Shown: positions 6,190-26,298 of the stretch, piece by piece
How positions within the stretch are numbered: the stretch's first letter is position 1
How the letters are laid out: the number at the start of each line of letters is the position of its first letter
Assembly (NCBI GenBank): GCA_965228265.1
Contig: OZ245804.1
Location: forward strand, 207,298-271,297
DNA: 64,000 nucleotides
Reading direction: 5' to 3'
From: Phycisphaerales bacterium
GTDB lineage: Bacteria; Planctomycetota; Phycisphaerae; Phycisphaerales; UBA1924
The notes under the pieces: generated by a model
What the model was told of the DNA's origin: nothing
What the model saw: the letters and a program-made list of their open reading frames with translations, nothing else
Database searches by the model: none
Translations under genes and position numbers: made by a program

Positions 6190-6560
6190 AGGACAGACAG
6201 CACATGAAATTGAGTGGTTCAATCAACCCCTGTTTCCGAGCCCGACTGAGAGCCATACTGATGTGATCATTTGCGGGAACTTCAAGAGGCGCGTCAGTGA
6301 ATCTGTGAGCGCACACCACGCACAGCCCGATCGGCTCGTAAAGCTGCTCGAAATCGCCCGTTTGATGGGGAATTCCCGTCGTCGGAGCGCCGTGTTCTCG
6401 AGTCGATGCTGTCGCGCGTTCTGTCAGAGGAGGATGTCAAGCGGTGAGCATCATTCGACGCTGCGGATCAGGTCGCGTTCTCAGGTCGACTCAGTCCAGA
6501 TCCGCTCTTCGATCCCGCATTGCTCGCATGCTCGCGATCCTCCCCAAGCGTCACCCCCAC
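6190..6560. repeat. Decayed copy of tRNA-Lys att fragment plus ~320-bp island-end repeat (copy A)
   Basis: About 75% nucleotide identity to 8700-9060. For example, both contain gagcccgactga..., ...cagcc[cg]gatcg[ga]ctcg[ta]aa...gtcgaaatcgcccg..., and ...ggatc[at]ggtc[ga]cg[tc]tctcaggtcgactc[ac]gtccagatccgctcttcgatcccgcattgctcgcatgctcg. Confidence 0.5.
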
Positions 6561-7639: not shown

Positions 7640-8677
7640 ATGGAGTGCGACGCGTCTCTATCATGCCGCATGCCAACGACGACGAGGACAAGTCAAACTA
7701 AACCGCCCGCGGATGCGTGGGAGTCGACGGATCCTCTGGGGGAGACGCTTCACTCGTTTCGCCTGGAGGGGGTGGTGTACGCCCGGTCACGCCTGACCGC
7801 ACCGTGGGGTATCGCCATGCCTCCGATGCCCGGTTGTCTGATGTTTCACATCGTGACGGCAGGCTCGTGCAGACTTGAGTTCGCTGATCAAGAAGCCGCG
7901 ACCATCCGCCCCGGCGAGTTCGCTCTGATGCCCCGTGGCGAGGGGCATGCGATCAAGTATGACGAGGGGGTGGCTGCTGAGCCCTTCTTCGACCTGCCCA
8001 TCCAGCGGATCACGCCTCGCTACGAGCTGCTCGACTACGGGGGCGGCGGCGAGGAAACCACGCTGATCTGCGGCGCGGTCCGCTTCGACCATCCGGCTGC
8101 TGGCGACTTGATCGAGCTGCTGCCGAGCTTGATTCATATCAGAACATGGAACTCGACTTCCGGGAATTCGGCTCACGCCGAGTGGATGCACAGCACGCTG
8201 CGGCTCATGGCGGCGGAGGCGAGCACACGTCAACCCGGCGGCGAGACGGTGGTGACAAGACTGGCCGACATCCTGGTGATACAGGCGATCCGTTCGTGGC
8301 TTCTGGAGAATCCGGCCTCGCGTCGCGGCTGGCTTGGTGCGCTTGATGACAAACGCATCGGGCCCGCGATCCTGCAGATTCACCGCGAACCGACGAAGGA
8401 CTGGACCGTCGCAACTCTCGCCCAATCGGTCTCGATGTCCCGCTCGGCGTTTTCGGCCCGTTTCACCGAGCTCGTCGGCGAATCCGCGATGCAGTATCTC
8501 ACACGATGGCGCATGCACCTGGCGGGATCGTGGCTGCGCGATGGCGACATCACAGCAGCCGAGTGCGGGGCACGTCTCGGTTACAACTCCGAGGCGGCAT
8601 TCAGCCGGGCATTTAAAAGAGTGATGGGCCAGCCGCCGGGAGCCTGGCAGTCCTCGGAGCAGCCCCCGGGAGCATGA
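7640..8677 (+). CDS. AraC-family transcriptional regulator (cupin-like N-domain + AraC HTH)
   Basis: C-terminal double HTH reads WTVATLAQSVSMSRSAFSARFTELVGESAMQYLTRWRMHLAGSWL...AAECGARLGYNSEAAFSRAFKRVMG. Start chosen at ATG 7640 (alternative 7670). The longer 7325 ORF would overlap the convergent NmrA gene. Confidence 0.8.
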   Translation: MECDASLSCRMPTTTRTSQTKPPADAWESTDPLGETLHSFRLEGVVYARSRLTAPWGIAMPPMPGCLMFHIVTAGSCRLEFADQEAATIRPGEFALMPRGEGHAIKYDEGVAAEPFFDLPIQRITPRYELLDYGGGGEETTLICGAVRFDHPAAGDLIELLPSLIHIRTWNSTSGNSAHAEWMHSTLRLMAAEASTRQPGGETVVTRLADILVIQAIRSWLLENPASRRGWLGALDDKRIGPAILQIHREPTKDWTVATLAQSVSMSRSAFSARFTELVGESAMQYLTRWRMHLAGSWLRDGDITAAECGARLGYNSEAAFSRAFKRVMGQPPGAWQSSEQPPGA

Positions 8678-8708
8678 ACGTCGCCGGACTCAAGAAGCCG
8701 AACAGAAG

Positions 8709-8750
8709 TACCCCCCGAAGGACTCGAACCTTCAACCCGCTGATTAAGAG
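8709..8750 (-). repeat. Direct repeat DR1: 42-bp copy of the 3' half (anticodon loop to discriminator) of tRNA-Lys(CTT) - left att site
   Basis: Sequence ta ccccccgaag gactcgaacc ttcaacccgc tgattaagag at 8709-8750 is identical to 47929-47970 inside the intact tRNA-Lys gene. Confidence 0.85.
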
Positions 8751-9060
8751 CCCGACTGAAAACCGCACTGACGCGATCAGAAGCGGGAGTTTCGATGAGC
8801 GCGGAAGTGGATCTGTGGGCGAACGCGACGCACAGCCGGATCGACTCGAAATGCTGGTCGAAATCGCCCGCGTGATCAGCCGGCTTCCGCCGGCGGAACG
8901 CCATGTTCTTGGGTCGATGCTATCGCTTGTCTTGCCTGACGGTGACGCTTCGCGGTGAGCATCTCTCGATGCTGCGGATCTGGTCACGCTCTCAAGTCGA
9001 CTCCGTCCAGATCCGCTCTTCGATCCCGCATTGCTCGCATGCTCGTAGGTATTTAGGGCC
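8751..9060. repeat. Island-end ~320-bp repeat (copy B) abutting DR1
   Basis: Homologous to 6250-6560 (see copy A). Confidence 0.5.
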
Positions 9061-10068
9061 TTCTTTGCGAATCCGAACGACCTTGCCGCGGTGTCCCTCC
9101 GCCCCGCACGCTGAGCAGTTCGTCGGCATCGAGGCGTTGGTCCCGCAGCTCTGGCACTTCCAGTAGTAGCCGTACTTACCCCAATGGGCGGATAGATCGG
9201 TGCCGCCGCAGCCTTTGCATGCCGCACCAGCCGCAGGGACCGCGGCCGGCTCTGACTTCGGTGCGGGCGGTGGAATTTCAACCGCGACGGTTGCTGCGGT
9301 TTGCGTGTCAAGCTTTGGTCGGACATTGGCCTCATGGCGTGCCGCGAGGAACTCCGCAACAAGCGTGACTTCCTCGGATTTCATGGACCACAATCCATAA
9401 TCGCCGGTTGACATATTCGTCAGCTTGCTTGCCGCCTTGTGCTTTCTGAATTCCTCTCTGATCTTGGTTGGGACGAGATCGGCCTTGCTGACATATGTGT
9501 GGAACGGCTTTTGGGGTTCTTTCCAATGGTTGATCCGGCGGATCTTTCCCCGATCCGAGATCGCCACGATGATCTGGATGGGCATGTTGCCAAAGCCACG
9601 GTGCTCTGTGCCGGCCATGATTTTGGCGAGTGTTCGGAAGCCGGGCGGCATTTTGCCGAGCAACTCTTCTCGGTGCCGCTGGAGAAACACGCGCAGGAAC
9701 TCCCCCTGGCGGCGTGCCTGTTGGATCGGCGACGGAAAACCCAGCTCCTGACCACGGTACCGACGCGTCCACTCATCACCGCCTGCTCCGTCGTCGCGTA
9801 CGGCCACTTCGTCCGTGACGGACTTACTCTCCACGATGAATGCACCCCACCGGTGAAGGATGAGGTGATCGATCTGACAGACACCTGGCCGGTCGTCGAG
9901 CTCGGGCTGATCCGGATCGACGAGACGCAGGTCGTTGAGGACGAGCAAGCCTGCCTCGGAAGCGAAATCTCGGTGCAGATAGAAGGCCATCTGCCGCTCA
10001 GCCTCGACGCCCGCGCGAAGCTTCGGATCTGACGACACTGACTGCGATTGGGTTTGCTTGACGATCAT
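8992..10068 (-). CDS. NERD (nuclease-related domain) protein with C-terminal Cys-rich zinc-ribbon region
   Basis: NERD core reads GVEAERQMAFYLHRDF...LVLNDLRLVD...QIDHLILHRWGAFIVESK. C-terminus has multiple CxxC pairs (CKGCGG...CQSCG...CSACG...CEQCG). Start taken at MIVKQ (10068), conserved in the paralogous fragment at 42608. Confidence 0.7.
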   Translation of the reverse strand: MIVKQTQSQSVSSDPKLRAGVEAERQMAFYLHRDFASEAGLLVLNDLRLVDPDQPELDDRPGVCQIDHLILHRWGAFIVESKSVTDEVAVRDDGAGGDEWTRRYRGQELGFPSPIQQARRQGEFLRVFLQRHREELLGKMPPGFRTLAKIMAGTEHRGFGNMPIQIIVAISDRGKIRRINHWKEPQKPFHTYVSKADLVPTKIREEFRKHKAASKLTNMSTGDYGLWSMKSEEVTLVAEFLAARHEANVRPKLDTQTAATVAVEIPPPAPKSEPAAVPAAGAACKGCGGTDLSAHWGKYGYYWKCQSCGTNASMPTNCSACGAEGHRGKVVRIRKEGPKYLRACEQCGIEERIWTEST

Positions 10069-10116
10069 CACATCTTCCCGGTTGTGAGTCACTACAAGTC
10101 CGTGTTCGTATACATT

Positions 10117-13100
10117 ATGACGATGACCGGCTCTGAGAAAAGACAACCGGAGGTGCCGCAAGGTCTCTATGACCATCTCGTCGACACCGCTCTCAAGGCG
10201 ACACTTGACGGCATGGGTGACTCTCGACTTGCGGAACTCGCCGAGGTCGATGCGGAGGACGCCCACGCCGCGATCGCCCAGTACCTCGAACGGCTTCTAG
10301 CGAAATCCATGTCCACCCTCCGCGGGCGAGAGGCCGCCGATCGCCAGCGTCGGCTTGTCGATCGGGTGATCGAGGCCCTCGTTGCCGAACTCGGCGACGA
10401 CTGGGCCGACCGCTTCAACCTCACCAGCCCGCTGCGTCGCCTGCTCGCCGTCCACGCCGAGCCCCGGGACACGGGCGCGTCGCGCCCCGACACGCCGCTC
10501 GCACGCTCGGCCCTGCTCACCGGCACCCGGCTGGACCCATCCCTCGCCTCGCAGCTCTCCAAGGAGTTTGCGGCGGCCGACCGAGTCGACATCCTCTGCT
10601 CGTTCATCAAATGGAGCGGCATCCGCCTGCTGATGGACGCGCTTCGCGAGCTCACCGCCACGCCCCACCCGGACGGCCCTCGACTCCGCGTCATCTCCAC
10701 GAGCTACATGGGCGCGACCGACTCCAAAGCAATCGAGGCCCTGCGTGATCTGCCCAACACTGAGGTCAAGGTGTCCTACGACACCGAGCGCACGCGGCTC
10801 CACGCCAAGGCCTATCTCGTCCATCGCGCGACCGGTTTCGGCAGCGCCTACATCGGCTCGGCCAACGTCTCCCGGGCCGCACTCTCTGAAGGTCTTGAAT
10901 GGACGAGCAAGATCAGCCAGTACGAGCTCCCGCACCTCTGGCAGAAGATCGTTGCGACCTTTGACTCGTATTGGAACGATGACGAGTTCGAGCATTTTGA
11001 TGGTGACGCGGCGCCGAGACTTCGCGAGGCGATCAGCCGCGAGCGAACGCGCGGCTCCGTCGAGATCGGCGAGCTACCGACCTTCGACCTTCGTCCCTAT
11101 GCGTTCCAACAGGAGATCCTCGACGCGATGGCGGCCGAGCGAGAGGTGCAAGACAAGCACCGTCACCTCGTCGTGGCTGCGACCGGCACCGGCAAAACGA
11201 TGATCGCGGCATTCGATTACAAGCGATGGTCAGGTACTCGCAAGCCGTCGTTGCTCTTCATCGCCCACCGGGAGGAGATCCTTCGCCAAGCACTCGGCAC
11301 CTACCGGGCCGTGCTCCGCGATCAGAACTTTGGCGATGTACTCGTTGGCGGCACGGCCCCCGGGCAACAAGACCACCTGTTCTGCTCGATCCAGAGCTAC
11401 AACAGCCGGGGGCTGCACAAGCTCCCATCGGATCTGTTCGACTACATCGTGGTTGATGAGTTTCATCACGCCGCGGCGCCGAGCTATCGGCGTCTGCTCG
11501 ATACCGCCCAGCCGAAGATACTTTTGGGCCTGACCGCGACGCCTGAACGAGCCGACGGTCTCGACGTACTCACACCGTTTGGCGGTGAACCGACCGCCGA
11601 GGTGCGATTGCCCGATGCGATCAGCCGGCGCCTGCTCTGTCCGTTCCAGTACTTCGGCGTTGCCGACAGCGTCGACCTCGACGGCCTGACGTGGCAGCGC
11701 GGCGGCTACCGCATCGAAGACCTCGACGCAGTCTACACCGGTAACGACGTTCGCGCCGGCCTCGTGCTCGACAAGGTGCACGAAAACCTGCTCGACCCGC
11801 TCCACGCCCGCGGCCTGGGCTTCTGCGTCAGCGTCGCCCACGCGAACTTCATGGCCCGCTTCTTCACTGAGCACGGCATCCCCGCGATCGCGCTCTCCGC
11901 CGAGACGCCCGCCGAAGAACGTCGCGCGGCCAAGGAACGTCTCATCCGCCGCGAGATCAACTTCATTTTCGTCGTCGATCTCTACAACGAAGGCGTCGAC
12001 ATTCCCGAGGTCGACACGGTCTTGTTCCTCCGCCCGACGGAGAGCCTGACCGTCTATCTCCAGCAGCTCGGACGTGGCCTCCGCCTGCATGACGAGAAGG
12101 AGTGCCTGACTGTCCTCGACTTCATCGGGGCTCAGCACCGGCAGTTCCGTTTTGCGTCTCGGTTCCGAGCACTGAGCACCGACCCCACTGGCCGCCTCGA
12201 ACGCGAGATCGAGTCCGGCTTCCCGCACCTCCCTGCCGGCTGCTTCATCCGGTTGGAGCGAGTTGCTCAACAACGCGTGCTGGAGAACGTGCGCCAATCA
12301 CTGACGCTGCGGCGCCCGCAGATGGTCGGTGACATACGCGAGCTCGGCCGTCACCTCGGCCGCGCTCCGAGCATCCGTGAGACGCTCGAGTACCTCGACA
12401 CCACGCTCGATGAGCTTCTCAAGCGAGGCCTCTGGAGCCGGCTTCTGAGCGATGCGGGCCTCACCGACGCACCCACCGGCGAAGACGAAGACCGGCTCGC
12501 GAAAGGCATTCGCCGTCTGGTCCACATCGACGACCCGCAACAACTCCGCTTTCTCCTCGCACACCTCGACGGCCAAGCGCCGCAAGACCCCCTCGCCGAA
12601 CGACGCCGAGCCATTTTGCATGTGACCCTGTGGGGTGCCGACGGCGTCTCCATGTCACCCGATGAAGCCGATGCCCGCCTTCGGGAGAATCCGAATGCGC
12701 TCGATGATCTCCGGGCCGTGCTCGATTACCGACTCCACCACACCCGCACCCGCCCGAGGGACCTGCTCCCCGACCTCGCCGGCCCGCTCGCCCTCCATGC
12801 CGAGTACACCCGAGACGAGGCCCTCATCGGCCTCGGCCACTGGGACTTGGATCGTCGCCCGGATTTTCGCGAGGGCGTCCTCCACATCCCGGACCGTAAG
12901 ATCGACGCCTTCTTTGTGACGCTGCACAAGACAGAGGAGGCGTACTCGCCGACGACGATGTACGAGGACTACGCGATCAGCGACCAGCTCTTCCATTGGC
13001 AGTCGCAGAGCACCACCTCGGCCGACTCGAAGACCGGGCAGAGGTACATCCACCACCGGGCGCAAGGCTACACCCCGCTGCTGTTCGTCCGCGAGCGCAA

Positions 13101-13245
13101 ATCACTCCCCGGCGGCCTCGCCGCCCCATACGCCTTCCTCGGCCCAGCTGACTACGTGTCCCACGAGGGCAGCCGCCCGGTGAGCATCATCTGGCGCCTG
13201 CGGACGCGGATGCCGACGCGGATTGCCCGGGTTGCGGTGGGATAG
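10117..13245 (+). CDS. PLD-family nuclease / SF2 (DEAH) helicase / DUF3427-like C-terminal domain fusion protein
   Basis: HKD motif RLHAKAYLVHRATGFGSAYIGSANVS. Helicase motif I VVAATGTGKT. Motif II IVVDEFHH. Motif III LGLTATPER. Motif VI LQQLGRGLR. About 300-aa conserved C-terminal domain. Confidence 0.8.
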   Translation: MTMTGSEKRQPEVPQGLYDHLVDTALKATLDGMGDSRLAELAEVDAEDAHAAIAQYLERLLAKSMSTLRGREAADRQRRLVDRVIEALVAELGDDWADRFNLTSPLRRLLAVHAEPRDTGASRPDTPLARSALLTGTRLDPSLASQLSKEFAAADRVDILCSFIKWSGIRLLMDALRELTATPHPDGPRLRVISTSYMGATDSKAIEALRDLPNTEVKVSYDTERTRLHAKAYLVHRATGFGSAYIGSANVSRAALSEGLEWTSKISQYELPHLWQKIVATFDSYWNDDEFEHFDGDAAPRLREAISRERTRGSVEIGELPTFDLRPYAFQQEILDAMAAEREVQDKHRHLVVAATGTGKTMIAAFDYKRWSGTRKPSLLFIAHREEILRQALGTYRAVLRDQNFGDVLVGGTAPGQQDHLFCSIQSYNSRGLHKLPSDLFDYIVVDEFHHAAAPSYRRLLDTAQPKILLGLTATPERADGLDVLTPFGGEPTAEVRLPDAISRRLLCPFQYFGVADSVDLDGLTWQRGGYRIEDLDAVYTGNDVRAGLVLDKVHENLLDPLHARGLGFCVSVAHANFMARFFTEHGIPAIALSAETPAEERRAAKERLIRREINFIFVVDLYNEGVDIPEVDTVLFLRPTESLTVYLQQLGRGLRLHDEKECLTVLDFIGAQHRQFRFASRFRALSTDPTGRLEREIESGFPHLPAGCFIRLERVAQQRVLENVRQSLTLRRPQMVGDIRELGRHLGRAPSIRETLEYLDTTLDELLKRGLWSRLLSDAGLTDAPTGEDEDRLAKGIRRLVHIDDPQQLRFLLAHLDGQAPQDPLAERRRAILHVTLWGADGVSMSPDEADARLRENPNALDDLRAVLDYRLHHTRTRPRDLLPDLAGPLALHAEYTRDEALIGLGHWDLDRRPDFREGVLHIPDRKIDAFFVTLHKTEEAYSPTTMYEDYAISDQLFHWQSQSTTSADSKTGQRYIHHRAQGYTPLLFVRERKSLPGGLAAPYAFLGPADYVSHEGSRPVSIIWRLRTRMPTRIARVAVG

Positions 13246-13350
13246 CGGGCGAGTGGATCCAAGCCATCTGAATCTCTGACATCGTGTCCACACTGAACGG
13301 TAATCTGGTGAACCCAACCGGTCGTATCATTTGCTAGAGAAAGGTACCGC

Positions 13351-15117
13351 ATGGCGAATCTAACTGGCTGTCCTGAAATTCGCTACGAAGCTCTTCGTCG
13401 CGTTAGGGAGACCGCTCTGGTCGATTTTGGTAGTCTCTTCACACCGGATCGGAAGATTTGGACAGCCCGCAATCTCCAACGGCACCACGAGATGGTCGTT
13501 CAGCGATTCGACGAAGGCGAGGGGAACTTCCTCAGCAAGTACCAGCACCAACTTGGCGGCGCGGACGACGACACGATCCAGCTTGCTGCCGAGCTCGTAT
13601 ACGTCCAGCAGATTTTCACCACGGTCACCGGTCCCAAGAAGAAGATAGCGAATGTTCAAGAGATCTTGACATGGTGCGATCGAGCCGTCGACGTCCCGGA
13701 GTGGGCGATCGACGGCGCTGCCGGACATGCTGGAGACCAGAGCTTCAACCAGCACCGACCGTGGCACCTGGCATGGATCAACGAGTATCTTCTCCACTGG
13801 CATGAGCTGCCCGAGTCGCTTAGGACGGAGATCCTTGCCGATCCGTGGACATTTCGAGAGAACGTGTTCGGACACAAGACCTCCTTGAAAGCATTCCAAC
13901 CGATGCGGGAGGCATGGCTCTACATCGCGTTTCCCGACACATTTGAGAACATCTCGTCCCGCAAGGACAAGAAGGCGATCAGAAGCGGCTTCGAGAGTCT
14001 CTTGCCCAACGGCGCGACCGACAACATCGATCGCGATCTCCTAGCTATTCGCGAAGCGCTCGGCAAGGACGCAGAGCCGGGCTTCCACTTCTATCGGAAG
14101 CCATACCTACAGCAGTGGAAGGAGCCCAAGGAGCCGAAGCCGAAGAAGCAGGCTGGTGCAGGCGCGGGGAATACCGTGACACCGAGCCCCGGTCTGTCCA
14201 TGAGCAATGCACCAGCACTGATCGAGTCGCTTGATGATCTCGCAGTATCACTGATGCTGGAACCCACCGACACTCTGTCGCGATGGGCGGCGCTGCTCGT
14301 AGAGAAGGGCCAGGTCATACTCCAAGGACCGCCCGGCACCGGGAAGACCTTCCTCGCTCGCAAGATGGCGGAGTCGCTCGCGGGTTCCGCGGATCGCGTG
14401 ACGGTCGTCCAGTTCCATCCCTCGTATGCATACGAGGACTTCGTTGAGGGCTTCCGCCCTGCCGGTCCCAATCACTTCGAAGTTAAGGACGGTCCGCTCA
14501 AGCGGCTGGCGACCCGAGCGGCGGCCGATCCCGGCGCACGCTTTGTACTGATTATTGACGAGATCAACCGAGGCAACATCGCAAAGGTGTTCGGCGAGCT
14601 GCTCTACCTACTCGAGTACCGCGATGAGGCCATCACCCTGCAGTATTCCGAGGCCCCATTCCGTCTGCCGCGGAATCTCTTGATCATCGGGACGATGAAC
14701 ACCGCCGATAGATCGATCGCTTTGCTCGACATGGCACTGCGGCGGCGGTTCCGGTTCCTCGACCTTGTCCCCGGCGAGGCGCCGATCGATGGGTTGCTTG
14801 AGAGGTTCTTGGAATCGAACGCTCCGGACATGGTATATCTCGCCGGCATGATCGATGTCGTCAACGAGATTGTGGGCGACCGGCACGTGATGGTTGGACC
14901 GAGCCATTTTATCACCGATGACCCGCGAGCCCTTACCGAGGAGTGGGCGAAGCAGATCTGGGAGCATTCGGTCATTCCCGCTTTGGCGGACCGCTTCTTC
15001 AACAACCCCAGCGAGATGAGTCAGTTCCTCTACGACACCGTTAGAGACCAGGTCACCTCCGACAATATTGTGGCCGACCAATCGGAGGACGAGGATGCGT
15101 CGGCTGACGCTGACTGA
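13351..15117 (+). CDS. mcrB: McrB-like AAA+ GTPase (5-methylcytosine restriction system B) with non-canonical N-terminal domain
   Basis: Walker A ILQGPPGTGKTF. McrB-specific region FVLIIDEINRGNIAKVFGELLYLLEYR...LLIIGTMNTADRSIALLDMALRRRFRF. Confidence 0.85.
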   Translation: MANLTGCPEIRYEALRRVRETALVDFGSLFTPDRKIWTARNLQRHHEMVVQRFDEGEGNFLSKYQHQLGGADDDTIQLAAELVYVQQIFTTVTGPKKKIANVQEILTWCDRAVDVPEWAIDGAAGHAGDQSFNQHRPWHLAWINEYLLHWHELPESLRTEILADPWTFRENVFGHKTSLKAFQPMREAWLYIAFPDTFENISSRKDKKAIRSGFESLLPNGATDNIDRDLLAIREALGKDAEPGFHFYRKPYLQQWKEPKEPKPKKQAGAGAGNTVTPSPGLSMSNAPALIESLDDLAVSLMLEPTDTLSRWAALLVEKGQVILQGPPGTGKTFLARKMAESLAGSADRVTVVQFHPSYAYEDFVEGFRPAGPNHFEVKDGPLKRLATRAAADPGARFVLIIDEINRGNIAKVFGELLYLLEYRDEAITLQYSEAPFRLPRNLLIIGTMNTADRSIALLDMALRRRFRFLDLVPGEAPIDGLLERFLESNAPDMVYLAGMIDVVNEIVGDRHVMVGPSHFITDDPRALTEEWAKQIWEHSVIPALADRFFNNPSEMSQFLYDTVRDQVTSDNIVADQSEDEDASADAD

Positions 15118-16318
15118 GTACAGCACGACGAGCGGAGTCGCTCTCGATGCTGCCGAGCTCGCGATGCTCCGCGGTGTTCATCCAACACTGCGGATCGAGC
15201 CCGCGATAGGCCTGCCGGGTCGATTCGACTTGACCCCCAATCAGCACATCGGTCTAGTTCAACTGCCCACTATCGCCATCGAGATTCAACCCAAGATGCC
15301 GATTTCGTCCGTTGTCTTCCTCGTCTCTTACGCAGCTGACCGCATGAGCTGGTCACGTATGCAGACGGCGTGGCAGGATGACGCGACGCTTGTCGATCTG
15401 ATCGCGACCGTGCTGTGTCGATCCATCGAACGCTCGACCCGAGAAGGACTTCTCGCGGGATATCGCTCCCACGAGGAGTCGTTGTCGGCGCCACGGGGCC
15501 GGATTCGGTTCCCCGAGCACATCAGCAAGCGACTCGGACAAGCTCCGCCAATCGAGATCGAGCATGACCTGTTCACGACGGACATCATCGAAAATCGAGT
15601 CTTGCTCAGCGCCCTCTCACAGCTGCGCCGCCTCCCGTTGCGATCGATGACGATCAACCACGAGATCGGACGCGCTGCGCGGCTCTTTGGCGGCGTGGAA
15701 CTCGTTCACTATCCGAAACACAGCATTCCAGATCCAGTCATCACGCAGCTCAATCGGCACTATGAACCGGCGCTTCGAATCGCTCAGCTCGTGCTCCGGT
15801 CGTCTTCCGTCGACGTCGGGTCGGGAGCCCGGCGAGCGGACGCGTTTCTCGTCGACATGAATGCCGTCTTCGAACTGTTTCTCCGCACGGCGTTACGAGA
15901 GTCGCTCCGGTGTCCCCTGAGCGCATTCCCTGATCGGCCGCCACGACTTCGCTTGGATGCCGCGGAGTGCATCCCGCTCAAGCCGGACCTTTGCTTGATC
16001 GCGAGCGGGAGAATCGTCTGGGTTGGTGATGCAAAGTACAAGCGCCTCAGCCCGGCCGGCTATCAGAACGCCGACGTGTACCAGATGCTCGCGTATCTGA
16101 CAGCCACCGGGTTGCCATCGGGTATGTTGATCTACGCTGCCGACGCAGGTTTGGCTTCGACGACGCACGTTATCGAGGGCGCGACTCGAGAGGTACGGAT
16201 ACGCACCCTCGATCTAAGAAAGCCGCCGTCTGGCATCCTGCGGGAGGTCGCGCTGATCGCAGACGAGATCCAGTCGGGGCAGAACTCGCCCGAAGTAAGC
16301 GAGCACTCTGTTGACTAG
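15095..16318 (+). CDS. mcrC: McrC-like PD-(D/E)xK nuclease subunit
   Basis: Overlaps the mcrB 3' end. C-terminal nuclease motif DLCLIASGRIVWVGDAKYKRL. Confidence 0.75.
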   Translation: MRRLTLTEYSTTSGVALDAAELAMLRGVHPTLRIEPAIGLPGRFDLTPNQHIGLVQLPTIAIEIQPKMPISSVVFLVSYAADRMSWSRMQTAWQDDATLVDLIATVLCRSIERSTREGLLAGYRSHEESLSAPRGRIRFPEHISKRLGQAPPIEIEHDLFTTDIIENRVLLSALSQLRRLPLRSMTINHEIGRAARLFGGVELVHYPKHSIPDPVITQLNRHYEPALRIAQLVLRSSSVDVGSGARRADAFLVDMNAVFELFLRTALRESLRCPLSAFPDRPPRLRLDAAECIPLKPDLCLIASGRIVWVGDAKYKRLSPAGYQNADVYQMLAYLTATGLPSGMLIYAADAGLASTTHVIEGATREVRIRTLDLRKPPSGILREVALIADEIQSGQNSPEVSEHSVD

Positions 16319-16836: not shown

Positions 16837-17484
16837 ATGGCGACTAATCCGAACACAGTTGCTGACGGCAAGGCATTCATGACCACACGAACAGCTCAAC
16901 TCGACCAGATCGCCGAGGTCTTCAGCGGTCACTATGAGAAGGGTGCCGCCAAGGACGAGCCGTCCGGCACACACCGCCTCGTGTTCATCGGGTCCATCGA
17001 TCCGGAGCCCGGCCATCGCTTGCTCCGCGACCGTTGCCCGAGATTCACACCGGTCAAGGGCCCCGGCGATGCCGTGCTCCGGCGCGGCGACCTCATTATC
17101 CCCGCCCGGGGCGAGCGGCTCGACATCGCGATGATCGATGAGCTGCCGGACAGCCGGCCTCTCGTGGCCGCGTCGTTCCTTCATGTCATCCGCGTGAACA
17201 CCGACGACGCCAATCCCGGATATCTCGCCTGGTGGCTCAACCAGCCGCAGGCCCAGGCTGCCCTCCGTGACCGCGTCCGCGGCACAAAGATCCCGTTCCT
17301 TTCTTTGAAGGCAACGCGTGCGTTGGAGGTCCACCTTCCGCCGCTCGACATCCAGCGTCGCATCTCTGAGTTCCACACCCTCGCCGTCCGTGAATCCCAG
17401 ATCATGACCGACCTGCGTGATACGAGATCACAACTGAACAACGCCCTCGCACTCCAGGTCGCCACAGGAGCCGTCCACGCATGA
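16837..17484 (+). CDS. hsdS: Type I restriction-modification specificity subunit, half-size (single target-recognition domain)
   Basis: N-terminal LDQIAEVFSGHYEKG and the HsdS conserved coiled region HLPPLDIQRRISEFHTLAVRESQI. Stop overlaps the hsdM start (ATGA). Confidence 0.6.
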   Translation: MATNPNTVADGKAFMTTRTAQLDQIAEVFSGHYEKGAAKDEPSGTHRLVFIGSIDPEPGHRLLRDRCPRFTPVKGPGDAVLRRGDLIIPARGERLDIAMIDELPDSRPLVAASFLHVIRVNTDDANPGYLAWWLNQPQAQAALRDRVRGTKIPFLSLKATRALEVHLPPLDIQRRISEFHTLAVRESQIMTDLRDTRSQLNNALALQVATGAVHA

Positions 17485-18992
17485 GCCAGACCAAGCACAC
17501 CACCAAGCAGATCGCCGACGCCGTCTGGGCCGCGTGCGACACTTTCCGCGGGGCCGTCGACCCGGCCAACTACAAGAACTACGCCCTCACGATGCTCTTC
17601 CTGAAGTACCTGTCCGACATGATGGTCGATCGGCGGGAGGAGCTCAGCAAGAAGTACAAGGGCGACGAGACCCGCGTCGAGCGTGCCCTCCGCAACGAGC
17701 GGTTCGTCCTCCCCGAGGGCTCCGACTTCCGCGACCTCTACATCAAGCGTGACGCCGACAACATCGGCGAGCTGATCAACATCGCCCTCGTCAACCTTGA
17801 GGACAACAACAAATCCAAGCTGGAGAATGTCTTCAGCAACATCGACTTCAACAGCGAGGCTGAGCTCGGCGAGACGCGCGACCGCAACGCCCGCCTAAAG
17901 AACTTGCTCGAAGACTTCAACAAGATCGACTGCCGCCCGTCGCACCTCGCCGGTCGCGATACGATCGGCGACGCATACGAACGGCTCATCGGCTGGTTCG
18001 CCGCGGGTGCCGGCAAGAAGGCCGGCGAGTTCTACACCCCGCCCGAGGTCTCCGAGCTGCTCGCCAAGCTGCTCCGGCCCGAGGAAGGTGCCCGCATCCT
18101 CGACCCCGCCTGCGGCTCGGGCTCGCTGCTCATCAAGGTCGCCCGCGAGGTCGGCTCGGACAACTTCGCAGTGTTCGGCCAGGAGTCCAACGGCTCCACC
18201 TGGGCCCTCTGCAAGCAGAACATGTTCCTGCACCAGATGGACCAGGCCCGCATCGAGCGGTGCGATACGCTCCGCTCGCCCAAGCTGCTCGACAACGACG
18301 AACTCATGCGGTTCGACATCGTCACCGCCAATCCCCCGTTCAGCCTCGACAAGTGGGGACAGGAAGACGCCGAGAAGGACCGCTTCAACCGCTTCTGGCG
18401 GGGCGTGCCGCCCAAGAGCCGCGGCGACTACGCCTTCATCAGCCACATGATCGAGACCGCCCTGGAGGGGCACGGCCGCGTCGGCGTCATCGTGCCTCAC
18501 GGCGTGCTCTTCCGCTCGGGGGCCGAGGGCCGCATCCGCCGCAAGCTCATCGAAGACAACCTGCTCGAACTTGTCGTCGGCTTGCCGCCCAACCTCTTCT
18601 ACGGCACCGGAATCCCCGCCGCGATCCTCATCTTCGACAAGTCGCGGAAGGGCGACACCAAGCGGGACACGGTGCTCTTCATCGACGCCAGCCGCGAGTT
18701 CGAGCAGGGCACCAACCAGAACCGCCTGACTGAGGACAACATCAAGAAGATCCTCGCGACCTACAAGGCGTACGAGAGCGTCGAGAAATACGCCCACGCC
18801 GCGACGGCCGAGGAGCTCGCCGAGAACGACTTCAACCTGAACATCCCGCGGTACGTCGACACCTTCGAGGACGAGGAGGAGATCGATATCGAGGAGACGC
18901 AGGCCGAGATCGATCGGCTTGAAATCGAGCTCGCCGAGGTCCGCGGCAAGATGGCGGCAACGCTGAAGGAGCTCGGCGTTGCGACATCCTGA
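17481..18992 (+). CDS. hsdM: Type I R-M N6-adenine DNA methyltransferase subunit
   Basis: HsdM N-domain, SAM-binding ILDPACGSGSLL, catalytic IVTANPPFS. Confidence 0.9.
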   Translation: MSQTKHTTKQIADAVWAACDTFRGAVDPANYKNYALTMLFLKYLSDMMVDRREELSKKYKGDETRVERALRNERFVLPEGSDFRDLYIKRDADNIGELINIALVNLEDNNKSKLENVFSNIDFNSEAELGETRDRNARLKNLLEDFNKIDCRPSHLAGRDTIGDAYERLIGWFAAGAGKKAGEFYTPPEVSELLAKLLRPEEGARILDPACGSGSLLIKVAREVGSDNFAVFGQESNGSTWALCKQNMFLHQMDQARIERCDTLRSPKLLDNDELMRFDIVTANPPFSLDKWGQEDAEKDRFNRFWRGVPPKSRGDYAFISHMIETALEGHGRVGVIVPHGVLFRSGAEGRIRRKLIEDNLLELVVGLPPNLFYGTGIPAAILIFDKSRKGDTKRDTVLFIDASREFEQGTNQNRLTEDNIKKILATYKAYESVEKYAHAATAEELAENDFNLNIPRYVDTFEDEEEIDIEETQAEIDRLEIELAEVRGKMAATLKELGVATS

Positions 18993-19002
18993 ATGGCCCA
19001 TC

Positions 19003-20220
19003 ATGAAGCTTGGCAAGCTGTGCAAGACTCAGTACGGGACATCAGCTGCTACAACATCTGACGGTGAACAGCACGTTCTCGGGATGTCGAATATCGGGGA
19101 CGGCCGTGTAGACCTCGCGGGCCTGTCGCGTCTGTCCTTGTCTGAACGGGAGGCGAGCACGCTTCGTCTCCACAAGTACGATGTGCTTTTCAACCGCACT
19201 AATAGCAGGGCTCTGGTTGGCAAAGTCGGCATCCTTATGGAGGAGCCGGAGACGCCAACAGTCTTTGCTTCATACCTCGTCCGATTGATCCCGAACGAAC
19301 GGGTGAGGCCGCAGTGGCTTGCCTATGCGATGAGCTCCGGGATCACCGGGCGATCGATCGTTCGCCTGATCACACTCGGGGTGAGCCAGGCGAACATCAA
19401 TCCGTCCGAGCTGTTGAAGTGGGTGGCTATTCCGGTGCCTCCGATCGAGGTTCAGGACCACTTGATCGACCGATTCGGCGATTTCGACAACGCTGCTGAC
19501 AAGCTGCGATATCATATTGAGTTCGCCAAGCATCGCCTCCACGGCCTGATGCAACAGCTCCTGACCGGCCGCCGCCGCCTGCCGGCGTTCGCGGGCGAGG
19601 CGTGGGAGGAGGTGCCATTCGGCGATCTCCTTGATCAGGTCGACCGATATGTCGAGTGGTCCGACGACGAGGTGTACCGACTCGTCTCCGTGCGACGCCG
19701 GTCGGGTGGCTTCTTCGACCGGGAACGCAAGCCCGGGAGCGAGATTCTCACCAAGACACTGAAGACCACGCGGACAGGTGACTTTGTGATCGCGAAGATG
19801 CAGGTCCTTCACGGTGCGATGACAGTCACGCCGCCGGAGTTCGACGGCTCGCATGTGTCCGACTCCTATCTCACGTTCGTGCCCAAGGACCAGGCCCGGC
19901 TCCACATGCCGTTCCTCGGCTGGCTCTCGAAGACACCTCGCATGTACTACAAGGCCTTCAGGTCGAGCTACGGCGTCGCGATCGAGAAGATGACCTTCCA
20001 TCTGCCCTGGTTCATGCAGGAAACCATCTCGCTGCCCACGAGCATCGACGAGCAGCGTGCCATCGCCGACATCCTCGACACCGCCCAACGCGAGATCGAG
20101 CTGCTCGAACAGCTCCGCGAGCAGATCCAGCTCCAGAAGCGTGGGCTGATGCAGAAGCTGCTGACCGGCGAGATCCGCGTGCCCGGGGACGAGCCTGTCG
20201 CTGAGGAGGTGTCGACATGA
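19003..20220 (+). CDS. hsdS: Type I R-M specificity subunit (two TRDs)
   Basis: MKLGKLCKTQYG start. Two TRDs separated by the conserved LLTGRRRLP region. C-terminal conserved LPTSIDEQRAIADILDTAQREIELLEQL. Confidence 0.85.
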   Translation: MKLGKLCKTQYGTSAATTSDGEQHVLGMSNIGDGRVDLAGLSRLSLSEREASTLRLHKYDVLFNRTNSRALVGKVGILMEEPETPTVFASYLVRLIPNERVRPQWLAYAMSSGITGRSIVRLITLGVSQANINPSELLKWVAIPVPPIEVQDHLIDRFGDFDNAADKLRYHIEFAKHRLHGLMQQLLTGRRRLPAFAGEAWEEVPFGDLLDQVDRYVEWSDDEVYRLVSVRRRSGGFFDRERKPGSEILTKTLKTTRTGDFVIAKMQVLHGAMTVTPPEFDGSHVSDSYLTFVPKDQARLHMPFLGWLSKTPRMYYKAFRSSYGVAIEKMTFHLPWFMQETISLPTSIDEQRAIADILDTAQREIELLEQLREQIQLQKRGLMQKLLTGEIRVPGDEPVAEEVST

Positions 20221-21287
20221 CGACACCAGAGCTGCTCAACTTCAATGACGCCATCTCGCGTTGCATCAAAGCCCCCCATGTGTTGTTGGGCAATGGTTTC
20301 AGCGTGGCGTGCCGGCCCAACCTGTTCAATTACAGCCGCCTCCTGGATCAGGCGAACCTCTCCGGCCGCCCGCAGGCACGTGAGGCGTTCGATCGTCTCG
20401 GTACGACGGACTTCGAGATTGTCATGAACGGCCTCTCCCGGGCCGCTGAGCTTGCAGACGTGTACGGCACCTCTGATGGCTCACTCGCCGACCGATTCCG
20501 CGAGGATGCCGAAGCCCTGAAAGAGGTCCTCGTTCAGACGATTGCCGGGACGCACCCTGACCTGCCCAAGGCGATTACCGATGATGAGTGTGCCGCGGCG
20601 AAGCGATTCCTGTCGCACTTCAGAGGCCGCCGCGACCAGAAGATCTACCTCTTGAACTACGACCTGCTGACCTATTGGGCTCTGATGCGGTCTGATGTTG
20701 AGCCGCAGATTGAGTTCGACGATGGGTTCCGGCAGCCGGAGGACGGACCCGAAGACTGGGTCGTGTGGGAATCGAACCGCCACATCCAGAACCTGTTCTA
20801 CCTTCACGGCGGTTTGCACATCTACCAGTCCGGCCCCGAGATCCGGAAGTTCACATGGTGCAACACCGGTCTGCCGCTGATGGATCAGATCCGGGCTGCT
20901 CTCGACGAGAACCGGTTTCCGCTCTATGTCGCTGAGGGCACCTGGCAGGACAAGATGACGCGGATCCGCCGCAGCGATTTCCTCGGCCGCGGTCGAAGGA
21001 GTTTCCGTCAGATCGGCGGCTCGCTGTTCATCTACGGAATGTCACTGAGCGACAACGACGACCACATCCTGCGAGCGATCGCGAGTGGCAGTGTCGAGCA
21101 GCTCTTCGTGTCCGTGTATGGGGGCATGGAGACCGATGCGAATCGCGAGCTCTGTGAGCGAGCCCTTGCCCTTACCGAGAGGCGGCAAGGAATCGGCGGG
21201 CGGAACCCTAAGCCGCTCAATGTCCAGTTCTTCGACGCCGAGTCGGCGAACGTGTGGGCGGCAGGTGCACCAGGGGAGAAGGCGTGA
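20217..21287 (+). CDS. SIR2-like (DUF4917-type) protein embedded in hsd operon
   Basis: N-terminal HVLLGNGFSVA (GAGxS-like) and KIYLLNYDLLTYWAL (TNYDxLLE-like) motifs characteristic of SIR2_2/ThsA-type NADase domains. ATGA overlap with hsdS. Confidence 0.6.
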   Translation: MTTPELLNFNDAISRCIKAPHVLLGNGFSVACRPNLFNYSRLLDQANLSGRPQAREAFDRLGTTDFEIVMNGLSRAAELADVYGTSDGSLADRFREDAEALKEVLVQTIAGTHPDLPKAITDDECAAAKRFLSHFRGRRDQKIYLLNYDLLTYWALMRSDVEPQIEFDDGFRQPEDGPEDWVVWESNRHIQNLFYLHGGLHIYQSGPEIRKFTWCNTGLPLMDQIRAALDENRFPLYVAEGTWQDKMTRIRRSDFLGRGRRSFRQIGGSLFIYGMSLSDNDDHILRAIASGSVEQLFVSVYGGMETDANRELCERALALTERRQGIGGRNPKPLNVQFFDAESANVWAAGAPGEKA

Positions 21288-22996
21288 TGACGATGGCAAG
21301 CAACGCGACCGGCCCGACACTCACTCGTCCCGTCGTGATCCGACCGGGACGACCCAACTTGCGGACGACCTTCCAGCTTTCGGCGGCACTGCTCCCGGAT
21401 GAGGGGCAGGCTGTTGACGAACTGTTCGACGCCGCGAGGTCGACAGCTCTGAAGTGGCTGCAGGACAAGTTCCCCGAGCGGCTTCCTGCTCCGGCCCTCG
21501 CCGGCGAGTCGTTCGACATCGACCTGCACGGCCAGAGCATGGCGGCGGTCGAGCTGTCCTCCGAGGGGCTGTGGACGGTCCGGCTCGTGCAGCCCGACGC
21601 CCCCTTTGGCGACCGGAAGGCGGTGCCGGGACGTTCGTGGACCACCGAGATCGCCTTCGCGAAGGACACCGGGCAGGTCCGCTTCGGTATCCGCGTGCTC
21701 TGTGCGTCCCTTGAGTTTGCGACCGAGCCGATCGCACTCACCCGACCCCGCATTGTGGTTGAGCTGTCCAATCGGTTCCGCATGCAGATCTCGGCACCGA
21801 TCTCCGGCCAGGCGTGGGAGCCGCAGGATGACGCGGACCTCGCTCGGCTGCGTGACCTGCTGATCGACCCGCGTCGCGAGCTGCCCGTCTATCTCCTGTC
21901 GGTGCCCGACAAGAACCAGCTCGGCATCAACCCGGCTCCGTATCTGCTGAACCATGAGCGACTCGCTCACAAGTGCCAGGGCATCGCCCATGTGGTGACG
22001 ATGCCGTGGAGCCTGGGGTACGCGTGGACCGATATGGTCGGCAAGCAGTGGTCGGCGTTCCTCGGTGCGGTCCGGACATACCGCCCGGGTTTGAACTTTG
22101 ACGAGGACAGCCCGTCCGACCATCCGCGTGCCTTTGCCGAACGCATCCTCGGCTTCTACTACAACGGGCAAACGATGGAAAGGGCCTTCGAGGACTTCCT
22201 CATCGACAAGGCCTACGAGCACGCGGCGACCAAGCGGATGGAGTGGGGATCGCTGATCTTCCTCGCCGACGCCCGAACGCGAGCCGCGGCCCTCGCGCGC
22301 GAGAGCACGACCGATGAGGGGGAGTGGCGTGAGCTCTACGAGACTGAGATCAAGTCGCTCAAAGAGAAGATCAAAGAGCTGGAAGGTGAATCTGAGGGTT
22401 ATCTCGATGTCGCGACTGCAGCCGAGCAGGAGCGAGACCAGGCGACTGAAGAAAACCGGAAGCTCCGCACACAGATCGATTCGCTCCGCACGGCACTCCA
22501 GGCAAAGACCGGCGAGAACCCGGACACAACGATTCAGATGCCCGCCTCCTATGACGAACTGCCTGAGTGGGTCGAGGCAAACCTGGCCGGCCGTCTCACG
22601 CTGCACAACAGAGCGGTGAGTCGGGGCCTGAAGAAGCCAGAGTTCGAGGATGTGGAGCAGGTGGCCCGCGTGCTGCTGCTCTTGGCCGGAGAGTACCGCA
22701 CGATGCGAATGGGTCACGATGGCGGCAAAGATGCCTTCGACCGGAAAGTTACAGAGATGTCTCTCCGGTACGACGGGTCCATTTCCGAAGAGCGAGCTGG
22801 ACAAGAGGGTGAGACGTACTTTGTGAAGTGGCCGTATCCCACTTCAAGTCGGCGATTCCTCAAGTGGCACATTCGATCCGGCGGAAACACTCGCGATCCC
22901 AAGCGGTGCCTTGCGGTGTACTTCTTCTGGGATGACGACACCCAGCAGGTCGTCGTGGGCTGGCTCCCGAGCCACTTGAACAACAGGCTGACCTGA
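21287..22996 (+). CDS. Uncharacterised ~570-aa protein with central coiled coil, partner of SIR2-like gene
   Basis: No recognisable P-loop or nuclease motif by eye. Coiled-coil segment EWRELYETEIKSLKEKIKELEGESEGYLDVATAAEQERDQATEENRKLRTQIDSLRTALQAK. Start overlaps the SIR2-like stop and its stop overlaps the hsdR start. Confidence 0.5.
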   Translation: MTMASNATGPTLTRPVVIRPGRPNLRTTFQLSAALLPDEGQAVDELFDAARSTALKWLQDKFPERLPAPALAGESFDIDLHGQSMAAVELSSEGLWTVRLVQPDAPFGDRKAVPGRSWTTEIAFAKDTGQVRFGIRVLCASLEFATEPIALTRPRIVVELSNRFRMQISAPISGQAWEPQDDADLARLRDLLIDPRRELPVYLLSVPDKNQLGINPAPYLLNHERLAHKCQGIAHVVTMPWSLGYAWTDMVGKQWSAFLGAVRTYRPGLNFDEDSPSDHPRAFAERILGFYYNGQTMERAFEDFLIDKAYEHAATKRMEWGSLIFLADARTRAAALARESTTDEGEWRELYETEIKSLKEKIKELEGESEGYLDVATAAEQERDQATEENRKLRTQIDSLRTALQAKTGENPDTTIQMPASYDELPEWVEANLAGRLTLHNRAVSRGLKKPEFEDVEQVARVLLLLAGEYRTMRMGHDGGKDAFDRKVTEMSLRYDGSISEERAGQEGETYFVKWPYPTSSRRFLKWHIRSGGNTRDPKRCLAVYFFWDDDTQQVVVGWLPSHLNNRLT

Positions 22997-25900: not shown

Positions 25901-26298
25901 CAATGCTCCGGGACATCATGGAGCGGATGCGTACTGGTTGGCTGGCTGCTGCTGAAGCTCTTGCCCAGGTCGAGGATATCGAAAGCGAGGTCATTCGTCC
26001 GACAGCCGACGACGTGCCCGAGTCACTAAGAGACTCGCGGCTCGGTGCCATCATCTTCCGGAATATCAAAGAAGAGCTCGGCGACGCTAGTGAGCAGGCT
26101 GCAGTGTCGATTGAATCAATCATCCGAAACCGGGCGATTGTTGGGTGGCGGAATAATGTCGACTGTCAGAAGTCGATGCGTCAGGCAATCGATGATTTCC
26201 TCTTTGAGCTTGGTGATGCCGTCGGTGCTACTTGGACTCTCGAAACAATCGACAAAGTAGTTGACATGTCTATTGAGCGGGCGAGGGCTGTTTTGTGA
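22996..26298 (+). CDS. hsdR: Type I restriction enzyme R (helicase-endonuclease) subunit
   Basis: Motif I HTQGSGKSLTM, motif II VLVDEGHRTQ, motif III GFTGTP, motif VI LQAIARVNR. 1100 aa. Confidence 0.9.
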   Translation: MDMNERITPRSDEDATSQLPALKVLINLGWKYLTQEDALSLRGGRTSEVLLYGVLEDWLRENNRIEYRGESVPFTEANIASAIATLRDEQDDGLVRTNEKLYDHLLLGKSLKQTVLGDSKSFQLKYIDWDAPENNVYHVTEEFAVDRSGSDKTYRPDLVLFVNGIPLGVIECKRSDLGPSKPAPVIQAIEQHVRNQKPDGIPKLYWYSQVIGALSPAGAPSGEVVTDEYESEAKLPARYATTGTPKKFWASWRESAIVNGEYEVADASVDAAVNDRLGQADVERLLKNRTASVKADFHAAEDQGRLATEQDRLLCRVFSPERLLRLSHRYIVFDAGVKKIARYQQYFCVEKIRRRIRDLGPDGMRRGGVVWHTQGSGKSLTMVMLAKAIAMDRHRGDLLGGEGGERIVLVTDRVDLDDQIYKTFKHCGLKAVQANKGSDLVRLLKDTEAKIATTVINKFDAALGKEQISVDDPNVIVLVDEGHRTQFGIRHSTMRRVLPNACYIGFTGTPVRRKDRSTVEKFGGMIDSYTIKQAEQDRAVLPIVYEGRHVIKDVNQAEIDDWFDKYTEGLSDEQKQDLRRKVSTEDQIMQADPVIRRIARDVSEHYRNFLQGTGLKAQLVAPSKAAAIRYKHWLDDLGEVRSEVLISPPDDREGDEDIYKPNRELVNRFWVGVLQRFGTDVQYAKQLINSFKHGDTADPESDAPEIMIVVDKLLTGFDAPENTVLYLGRKLREHNLLQAIARVNRLATGKERGYVLDYRGVLEELDDAFAMYSRDPDDPESADLGFVESLASIDKAWDDLPQRHSLLWDTFKDLAGSRDREAYEQHLADEALRIRFYERYAAFARVLDVALSSHTFLNATPNATVAKYREDLKFFGELRRAVRIRYAEVVDFSEYEPKIRKLLDQYISASGVESITGKIDLYDRDQRAAALEAAGSASSKAETIASNVSRVLEERVREEDPATYRRLSAMLRDIMERMRTGWLAAAEALAQVEDIESEVIRPTADDVPESLRDSRLGAIIFRNIKEELGDASEQAAVSIESIIRNRAIVGWRNNVDCQKSMRQAIDDFLFELGDAVGATWTLETIDKVVDMSIERARAVL

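Follow-up and report, generated by a model that had tools for sequence, protein, structure and literature searches.

Two divergent genes at the edge of a defence island

We analysed 64,000 nucleotides of DNA from a Phycisphaerales bacterium (GenBank assembly GCA_965228265.1, contig OZ245804.1, positions 207,298 to 271,297 of the forward strand), and this whole stretch is referred to as the window. Near one end of the window lie two divergent genes. The smaller (gene A), on the minus strand, encodes a NERD-family protein, and the larger (gene B), on the plus strand, encodes a protein with phospholipase D (PLD) nuclease, superfamily 2 (SF2) helicase, and DUF3427 domains. Both open reading frames (ORFs) are present in the window and span 8992-10266 (gene A) and 10048-13245 (gene B). 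An earlier note on this DNA, made by a model from the sequence alone, had regarded the two genes as a candidate restriction-like defence module.

The start codons of both genes were corrected by comparison with homologues. The ORF of gene B opens at a TTG codon at 10048, which gives the 1065 amino acids (aa) of the earlier note; homologues are 1040-1042 aa long, and their alignment begins at the ATG at 10117. Judged by this alignment, the start of gene B is ATG 10117, and the gene (10117-13245, plus strand) encodes 1042 aa. The ORF of gene A can be extended back to a GTG at 10266, and 32 of 32 aligned homologues begin with MIVK, which corresponds to the ATG at 10068. On the same grounds the start of gene A is ATG 10068, and the gene (8992-10068, minus strand) encodes 358 aa. 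With the corrected starts, the two genes are separated by a divergent intergenic region of 48 bp (10069-10116) that is common to both, in agreement with the earlier estimate of about 50 bp.

Gene B belongs by sequence to the SauUSI family

Pfam searches recovered every domain that the earlier note had read from the two translations. In gene B, PLDc_2 scored 27.1 bits (cut-off 27) and RE_NgoFVII, also a PLD family, had an E-value of 7e-6; ResIII (1.8e-32), Helicase_C (3.6e-12), and DUF3427 (8.7e-23) were matched as well. On the plus strand, the PLD (HKD) nuclease domain occupies about aa 150-300 (10564-11016), the SF2 helicase-like ATPase about aa 326-680 (11092-12156), and DUF3427, an SRA-like target-recognition domain, aa 857-1036 (12685-13224). 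The motifs HAKAYLVHR, GSAN, ATGTGKT, DEFH, and TATPER were all found in the translation. The fused protein is real, at 1042 aa rather than 1065.

PADLOC identified gene B by its model of the type IV methyl-directed restriction enzyme (mREase_IV). The mREase_IV profile PDLC03659 matched gene B with an E-value of 2.9e-237, aligning residues 118-1035 (918 of 1042) with profile positions 11-934 (924 of 945 positions). The score was 788 bits, compared with 246 bits for PDLC03658, the second mREase_IV profile, whose 953 positions equal SauUSI in length. SauUSI is an ATP-dependent type IV restriction endonuclease of S. aureus that works alone (PMC3141236). Its chain runs from a PLD nuclease through an SF2 helicase-like ATPase and a helical coupler to a DUF3427 recognition domain (PMC3141236; PMC7913695), and this last domain has an SRA fold and recognises 5-methylcytosine (5mC) and 5-hydroxymethylcytosine (5hmC) (PMC3141236; PMC7913695, PDB 7CLG). 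The earlier note held that the fused architecture was not a named system. Since the architecture is the one that defines SauUSI, and the PADLOC match runs over the full length, that claim was wrong. We conclude from sequence that gene B is an ordinary member of the SauUSI family, a known and well-studied kind of restriction enzyme that acts on methylated DNA of foreign origin.

The closest solved structure to gene B by sequence was SauUSI itself (7CLG, 7clg_A; E 1.1e-74). In the HMMER alignment, the catalytic residues H229, K231, N250, and E261 of gene B aligned with H119, K121, N139, and E150 of SauUSI, mutation of any of which abolishes cleavage (PMC3141236). The ATPase motifs are Walker A GTGKT (357-361), DEFH (447-450), and TATP (473-476). 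Residues 931-1015 aligned with SauUSI 839-918, and within this region D951 and W961 aligned with the 5mC-pocket residues D858 and W868. All six of these residues and the three ATPase motifs were invariant in 15 homologues of 68-89% identity (alignment A3).

A structural model of gene B was built with AlphaFold2 from a shallow alignment of 15 closely related sequences. The model was poor overall (mean predicted local distance difference test score, pLDDT, 58.7), with a good PLD core and a mostly good C-terminal third; in the DUF3427 region, block-mean pLDDT values were mostly 66-94, with a single low loop at 939-950. The best Foldseek match of the model was again 7CLG (E 2e-21, about 970 columns, about 20% identity over the alignment). 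Its template modelling scores (TM-scores) were low because the whole-protein model was poor, and the match was therefore counted as supportive only.

A helical N-terminal extension of about 117 aa (10117-10467) is conserved and is covered by neither of the two mREase_IV profiles and not by 7CLG. It was found both in relatives that have a NERD neighbour and in relatives that do not. With more than 8000 matches, mostly annotated "DUF3427 domain-containing protein", the family is a very large one, and most relatives of gene B are solitary genes. The exact 1042-aa sequence was not found in the protein collection, an exact-sequence search with the NERD protein returned no contig record, and NCBIfam names neither gene B nor the NERD protein, all matches being far below the cut-offs. 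No methyltransferase adjoins gene B; the closest one, about 4 kb distant, is the N6-adenine HsdM, which belongs to a separate type I operon.

Gene A is a NERD protein with a predicted double zinc ribbon

Gene A matched the Pfam NERD family (PF08378) with an E-value of 5.5e-14, and the profile match, the D...(D/E)xK signature, and the restriction-endonuclease-like fold of this family are all present. The N-terminal PD-(D/E)xK domain has invariant D67, E80, and K82, and is followed by a helical middle region and a disordered linker (aa 251-279). The Cys-rich tail described in the earlier note was borne out: eight Cys residues, invariant in 32 homologues, are arranged as four CxxC pairs and are predicted to form two C4 zinc ribbons (C284/C287/C305/C308 and C318/C321/C344/C347). 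When the isolated tail was compared with Pfam, there were sub-threshold rubredoxin-like matches only, and Zn_ribbon_Top1 was not matched. PADLOC returned one marginal CARF match (E 0.0076) and no convincing model, and a PDB sequence search with gene A gave nothing but a chance match to the MDM2 zinc finger.

The gene A family has 735 detectable members with a typical size of about 357 aa. Members in at least six phyla, mostly from marine metagenome-assembled genomes (MAGs; loci L022-L086 in our numbering), are 50-57% identical. The host MAGs include Planctomycetota, Acidimicrobiales, Alpha-, Gamma-, and Deltaproteobacteria, Binatia, Dehalococcoidia, and Acidobacteriota, and several MAG names, Candidatus Poriferisocius for instance, suggest that some of these bacteria live in association with sponges. 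Such identity across phyla points to recent horizontal spread. The NERD protein ZwsA has been reported as a stand-alone defence nuclease whose NERD domain is able to cleave RNA (bioRxiv 10.64898/2026.04.06.716636). Gene A most probably acts by itself as a defence or conflict gene that targets nucleic acid, and its family may be an unrecognised stand-alone defence gene that horizontal transfer has carried to marine and sponge-associated members of six or more phyla.

The pair is inherited as a unit in one Phycisphaerales lineage

We further investigated how often the two genes occur together. On the NERD side, one genome per species was scanned, giving 80 loci with 69 dereplicated upstream neighbours and 66 downstream members. 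Neighbouring genes were called by a crude longest-ORF caller on high-GC DNA, where spurious ORFs lower the counts and do not produce false family matches. A SauUSI-like gene was located directly upstream of the NERD gene, and divergent from it, in six loci, all from Phycisphaerales. The identities to the window were 94% for the enzyme and 79% for the NERD protein in L007, 92% and 78% in L009, 87% and 69% in L014, 86% and 70% in L012, 75% and 59% in L016, and 74% and 61% in L017, so the two values dropped in step. The flanks of these six loci were unrelated to the window, except for a small integrase-remnant sequence (o94). The genes were spaced 46-48 bp apart, and the sequence between them was partly kept (TTCGCATACATTATGACGATG before the enzyme start), in L007, L009, L012, L014, and a degraded copy in the window. 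A scan of the 48-bp gap, which covered the sigma-70 type only, found no sigma-70 consensus.

The degraded copy of the divergent pair was identified at 42420-44258 by tblastn, blastn, and Pfam. Its NERD gene retains the first 63 codons only (42608 down to 42420, minus strand). Its SauUSI-like gene, on the plus strand, retains aa 1-535, carries a frameshift near 44110, and ends at a low-GC Lamassu cassette; Pfam detected PLD and ResIII only in its ORF at 42824-44203. Compared with the intact pair, tblastn identity was 71% for the NERD fragment and 82-90% for the SauUSI-like fragment, and blastn identity was 74% over 1853 nt. At this level of nucleotide identity the copy is not a recent duplicate. 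The six loci with parallel divergence, the conserved spacing, and the degraded copy together indicated that the pair was inherited as a unit in this lineage.

A clearly decayed copy in the same window could also be taken as a sign that the adjacency is biologically meaningless and that one or both genes are decaying. However, in the copy under study both ORFs run to full length and no catalytic residue is lost, and the proteins are 94% (enzyme) and 79% (NERD) identical to intact orthologues. We consider this explanation scarcely credible.

Most relatives of either gene occur without the other

Over all NERD loci, mREase_IV was found upstream in 7 of 69 (about 10%), and a single ancestral event accounts for six of these seven adjacencies. 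The enzyme is absent from about 90% of the NERD loci. Other upstream neighbours were PDC-S68, PDC-S11, PDC-S05, HerA, SoFic, AbiEii, RhuM, ArdC, and an HKD+Snf2 protein, together with a type IV secretion system (T4SS) coupling protein, a topoisomerase, and housekeeping genes. Known or candidate defence proteins made up about one fifth of the upstream neighbours. Downstream neighbours were heterogeneous (SecA, EPSP synthase, integrase, and others), with no recurrent family.

The lineage of L001-L006 carries an intact, 78%-identical NERD gene beside a type III restriction-modification (R-M) system and a PDC-S68 helicase, and this gene was unchanged on at least 24 contigs. In L003-L005, all that survives nearby of a SauUSI-like gene is a remnant that codes for 35 aa of its recognition domain (91% identical), at about 13156-13260 (11995-12099 in L005). 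It overlaps the start of an rve transposase ORF and lies 2 kb from the intact NERD gene. We take this remnant as evidence for loss of the enzyme with retention of the NERD gene. In 10 of the best 120 enzyme clusters, the longest contig was equal in size to that of a top NERD cluster, which suggests further NERD/enzyme pairs.

On the enzyme side, 80 metagenomic loci with full-length relatives of 42-87% identity were examined, with up to 6 kb on each side where the contig allowed. A NERD-zinc-ribbon gene was found at 1 of the 80 (L119), in a sample in which several loci had little upstream DNA, so that at a few of them a divergent NERD gene would have gone unseen. No NERD neighbour was found for the three closest metagenomic relatives (86-87%), nor for any of four close relatives of 73-86% identity that were examined with gene calls. 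An obligate two-gene system of NERD and SauUSI-like proteins would show consistent co-occurrence, and the counts of 1 of 80, 0 of 4, and 7 of 69 do not show it. The pairing is conserved in one Phycisphaerales lineage only, plus two sporadic cases. The association is thus facultative and not obligatory; the NERD gene is optional, and there is no evidence that it is a required partner. The module proposed in the earlier note is thus weakly supported: the genes are co-inherited in one lineage and recur in two other arrangements, but most relatives of either gene lack the other.

Other genes were seen beside the enzyme. Among relatives of 42-47% identity, of which many come from metagenomes of the gut or of fermentations, an ORF of 122-133 aa directly follows the enzyme at no fewer than 15 of the 80 loci (for example L133, 9160-9561, and similarly L135, L141-L145, L155, L158, L160, L162, and L165). 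One such ORF was tested and is a NUDIX hydrolase (4e-18), which looks a more consistent partner than NERD in that subfamily. In L087, L088, and L089 (86-87% identity), a long ORF precedes the enzyme in tandem and is complete only in L087 (2093-6004). There it encodes a 1303-aa protein with HIT, ResIII/Helicase_C, and Peptidase_S24 domains that matches mREase_IV (2e-76). The arrangement in L087 would be a two-helicase operon; L088 and L089 show partial upstream ORFs only.

Two autonomous nucleases or a two-component system

The best reading of these results is that of two autonomous nucleases travelling together, one known and one uncharacterised. In this reading, which we hold to be probable, gene B is a SauUSI-family type IV restriction enzyme made of one polypeptide, gene A is a separate, autonomous NERD nuclease, and the two form a facultative cassette inherited in marine Phycisphaerales at a tRNA-Lys hotspot. 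Gene B is regarded as autonomous because 79 of 80 metagenomic and 4 of 4 close relatives had no NERD gene in the stretches covered, and because SauUSI works alone. [quoted passage not shown]

Several observations weigh against this reading. Some concern the enzyme: the acidic residue E126 of the SauUSI motif HxK(x)4E is replaced by His (H236) in gene B, and its DUF3427 domain is tied to the SauUSI recognition domain by only 21 bits of similarity. The substrate of this domain is not readable from its sequence, nor is the exact modification predictable; being weakly similar, the domain may differ from that of SauUSI in specificity. Others concern the pairing. Of all upstream neighbours of the NERD family, the SauUSI-like enzyme is the most frequent, and the two families are adjacent in at least three arrangements: divergent in Phycisphaerales, in tandem in L043, and in tandem in L119. 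In L043 (Acidimicrobiales), a 35%-identical SauUSI-like gene lies upstream of the NERD gene with a 268-bp gap, and in L119 the NERD gene follows the enzyme after a 41-bp gap. The L119 enzyme is 51% identical and its NERD protein about 35-42%, with all catalytic and Cys residues kept. In L018, a different protein, with PLD and SNF2 helicase domains, is encoded divergently upstream of the NERD gene. The common 48-bp intergenic region suggests co-regulation, and neither gene of the degraded copy is intact.

The points on the pairing, together with the co-inheritance, parallel divergence, and conserved spacing in the Phycisphaerales loci with unrelated flanks, would fit if the pair were a true two-component type IV system, in which the NERD-zinc-ribbon nuclease is the functional partner of the SauUSI-like motor and the two are co-regulated from the 48-bp region. 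The NERD protein could then be a second effector nuclease, as McrC is for McrB, or a back-up that acts when the enzyme is inhibited. We consider such a system unlikely. The absence of the NERD gene from nearly all enzyme loci, and of the enzyme from most NERD loci, speaks against it, as do the single ancestral event behind most of the NERD-side adjacencies and the intact NERD gene beside a mere remnant in L003-L005. Moreover, gene B keeps an intact PLD catalytic site, and SauUSI is self-sufficient. About three to four independent adjacency events are above chance for two arbitrary genes and are within reach of defence-island clustering, and a true functional coupling of the two proteins seems doubtful to us. 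Among the papers searched, none mentions NERD together with DUF3427.

The recurrence of the NERD family beside PLD-helicase restriction enzymes could nevertheless point to an accessory or back-up role. In its strongest form, the NERD-double-zinc-ribbon nuclease would be a dedicated accessory of SauUSI-type or other PLD-helicase enzymes, either a second nuclease loaded by the motor or a guard triggered by phage inhibition of the enzyme, and the result would be a two-gene type IV variant that arose independently in divergent and tandem forms. This proposal is tentative, and the evidence on balance disfavours it. The pairing is a lineage-restricted cassette whose functional meaning is unproven.

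The tRNA-Lys hotspot and neighbouring genes

The pair lies at a defence-island edge, as the earlier note had supposed, with an att-like tRNA-Lys repeat and an integrase remnant adjoining the NERD gene. The repeat, at 8706-8750 (minus strand) and about 240 bp past the NERD stop, duplicates the 3' half of tRNA-Lys(CTT) over 45 bp, with 44 of 45 positions identical; the intact tRNA-Lys(CTT) gene is at 47928-48002. The repeat is contained in the remnant of an integrase C-terminus (8674-8958, plus strand), which is convergent with the NERD gene and 63% identical to the last 83 aa of a Phage_integrase gene in L001 (11102-12214). In L001 and L003-L006, the same tRNA-Lys fragment follows the NERD stop at a distance of about 240 bp. 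In L007, the integrase-remnant sequence is likewise located beyond the NERD stop, where the exact tRNA fragment was not found, and in L014 an intact tRNA-Lys gene lies about 280 bp past the 3' end of the enzyme gene. An older junction relic at 6223-6534, 2.5 kb away and 78% identical, includes the last 17 codons of a NERD gene; this relic and the junction at 8706-8750 flank an AraC/NmrA gene pair.

This setting raised another explanation, that the NERD-zinc-ribbon protein has no role in defence but processes DNA for mobile elements or in repair, for instance at island junctions, and stands beside the enzyme only through a common tRNA-Lys hotspot. Besides the tRNA-Lys fragments and integrase sequences in the window, L001, and L003-L006, and the integrase-remnant sequence in L007, tRNA genes adjoin the NERD gene in L013, L014, and L015, the T4SS coupling protein, ArdC, and topoisomerase are among its neighbours, and PADLOC has no convincing model for the protein. 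However, the integrase is not recurrent: it is the first member of the downstream set and is outside the 25 most frequent downstream families, each of which matches at most 2 of the 66 members. The share of defence proteins among the upstream neighbours also argues against a processing factor, and many NERD loci lie in plain housekeeping flanks without mobile-element genes. We regard this explanation as quite improbable.

Downstream of gene B, the pair is adjoined by an McrB-like AAA_5 gene (13351-15117) and, next to it, an McrC gene (15068-16318), beyond which lies a type I R-M operon of HsdM, HsdS, and HsdR (17481-26298). These are the McrBC and type I R-M neighbours that the earlier note had named. 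Its proposal of a restriction-like defence role was also correct. The type I region as a whole (16837-27026) includes an extra half-size hsdS (16837-17484) and a YgjP-like metallopeptidase gene (26295-27026), and two candidate defence genes lie between hsdS and hsdR, PDC-S21/DUF4917 (20217-21287) and HEC-07 (21254-22996). Further on, at 28368-35138, an RtcA/RtcB RNA-repair operon and the sigma-54 activator gene RtcR flank five tRNA genes (His, Arg, Pro, Leu, and Leu). The degraded copy of the pair adjoins the intact tRNA-Lys gene and is cut off by the Lamassu cassette (44300-47900; genes 45004-46131 and 46128-47843), which has a GC content of 0.51-0.54 and lies between the truncated SauUSI-like gene and tRNA-Lys(CTT). 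The cassette matched LmuA, with a Cap4-type nuclease domain (8e-78), and LmuB (3e-181) in PADLOC.

We considered whether 8.7-48 kb was a single integrated island bounded by the tRNA-Lys repeat. The interval between the two copies of the pair holds McrBC and the type I R-M genes, and also core-like genes (RtcB, RtcA, RtcR, the five tRNAs, a Band 7 protein, and a Ser/Thr kinase), and because of the latter the simple reading of a single island was rejected. A rearranged integration hotspot with several insertions, not one clean island, fits better. The locus is an example of turnover at a tRNA-Lys hotspot: one end bears an intact cassette and the other a decayed copy, into which Lamassu has been inserted.

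Proposed mode of action

By analogy with SauUSI, gene B would dimerise through its PLD nuclease domains, and its C-terminal SRA-like DUF3427 domain would flip out a modified cytosine, of the 5mC or 5hmC class, in incoming DNA. Recognition of the modified base would switch on the SF2 ATPase, and the motor would then translocate directionally along the DNA while the PLD site cuts both strands or shreds the DNA (for dimer formation, base flipping, ATPase activation, and translocation of SauUSI, see PMC7913695 and bioRxiv 10.1101/2025.10.16.682607). Like SauUSI, gene B would need neither a methyltransferase nor a partner protein. The methylase of the adjacent type I operon is an N6-adenine enzyme and should not create self-targets. 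For the NERD protein, we infer metal-dependent cleavage of nucleic acid, DNA or RNA, at D67/E80/K82, with the zinc ribbons binding the substrate. The two genes would share the 48-bp region as a divergent control region; they are inherited as a small cassette at the tRNA-Lys hotspot.

The large gene adds little to what is known, since SauUSI-type enzymes are widespread and already included in defence-annotation tools, and their occurrence in a Phycisphaerales island is expected. The interest that remains is modest and lies in the NERD double-zinc-ribbon family, which is uncharacterised, strongly conserved, found across phyla, and has no PADLOC model.

Comparison with known systems

The earlier note had drawn analogies to DISARM and Mokosh, and neither was sustained. 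Among the best 25 of 26 PADLOC families matching gene B there was no Drm model, and the neighbouring genes are McrBC and type I R-M, with no DUF1998 (DrmB) gene. Likewise, no Mko or Nhi model was among the best 25 of these 26 families, and gene A gave the marginal CARF match only. Gene A does share the NERD PD-(D/E)xK domain, the D...ExK signature, and the association with defence islands with Mokosh type I, Nhi-like proteins, and ZwsA. It differs from Nhi and Mokosh MkoA in having no helicase fusion, from ZwsA in having no VHS, DUF647, or S4 domains, and from all of them in its distinctive double zinc-ribbon tail.

Gene B resembles CglI/NgoAVII and DISARM DrmC/DrmA in using a PLD-family nuclease together with an SF2 helicase-like ATPase in DNA restriction. 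However, CglI/NgoAVII are multi-subunit (R and H) and DISARM is a five-gene operon that includes a methyltransferase, whereas gene B is all in one chain; their recognition domains are B3 or absent, whereas that of gene B is SRA-like. With McrBC, gene B would share modification-dependent, NTP-driven, translocating restriction. McrB is a GTP-dependent AAA+ ring without a nuclease of its own and strictly needs McrC, whereas here an SF2 ATPase motor itself carries a PLD nuclease, and most relatives do without the PD-(D/E)xK gene.

SauUSI is the closest counterpart. Gene B is likewise one polypeptide, with the PLD nuclease, SF2 ATPase, helical coupler, and DUF3427/SRA-like domain in the same order, and it keeps the catalytic HxK, N, and E, the motifs of the ATPase, and the pocket D and W. 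Both have no adjacent cognate methyltransferase, and both have a defence context. Gene B differs from SauUSI in its low identity (about 20%) and better fit to the sister profile PDLC03659, in the N-terminal extension of about 117 aa, in H236 at the position of E126, in a weakly similar recognition domain, and, in this lineage, in being paired with a divergent NERD gene.

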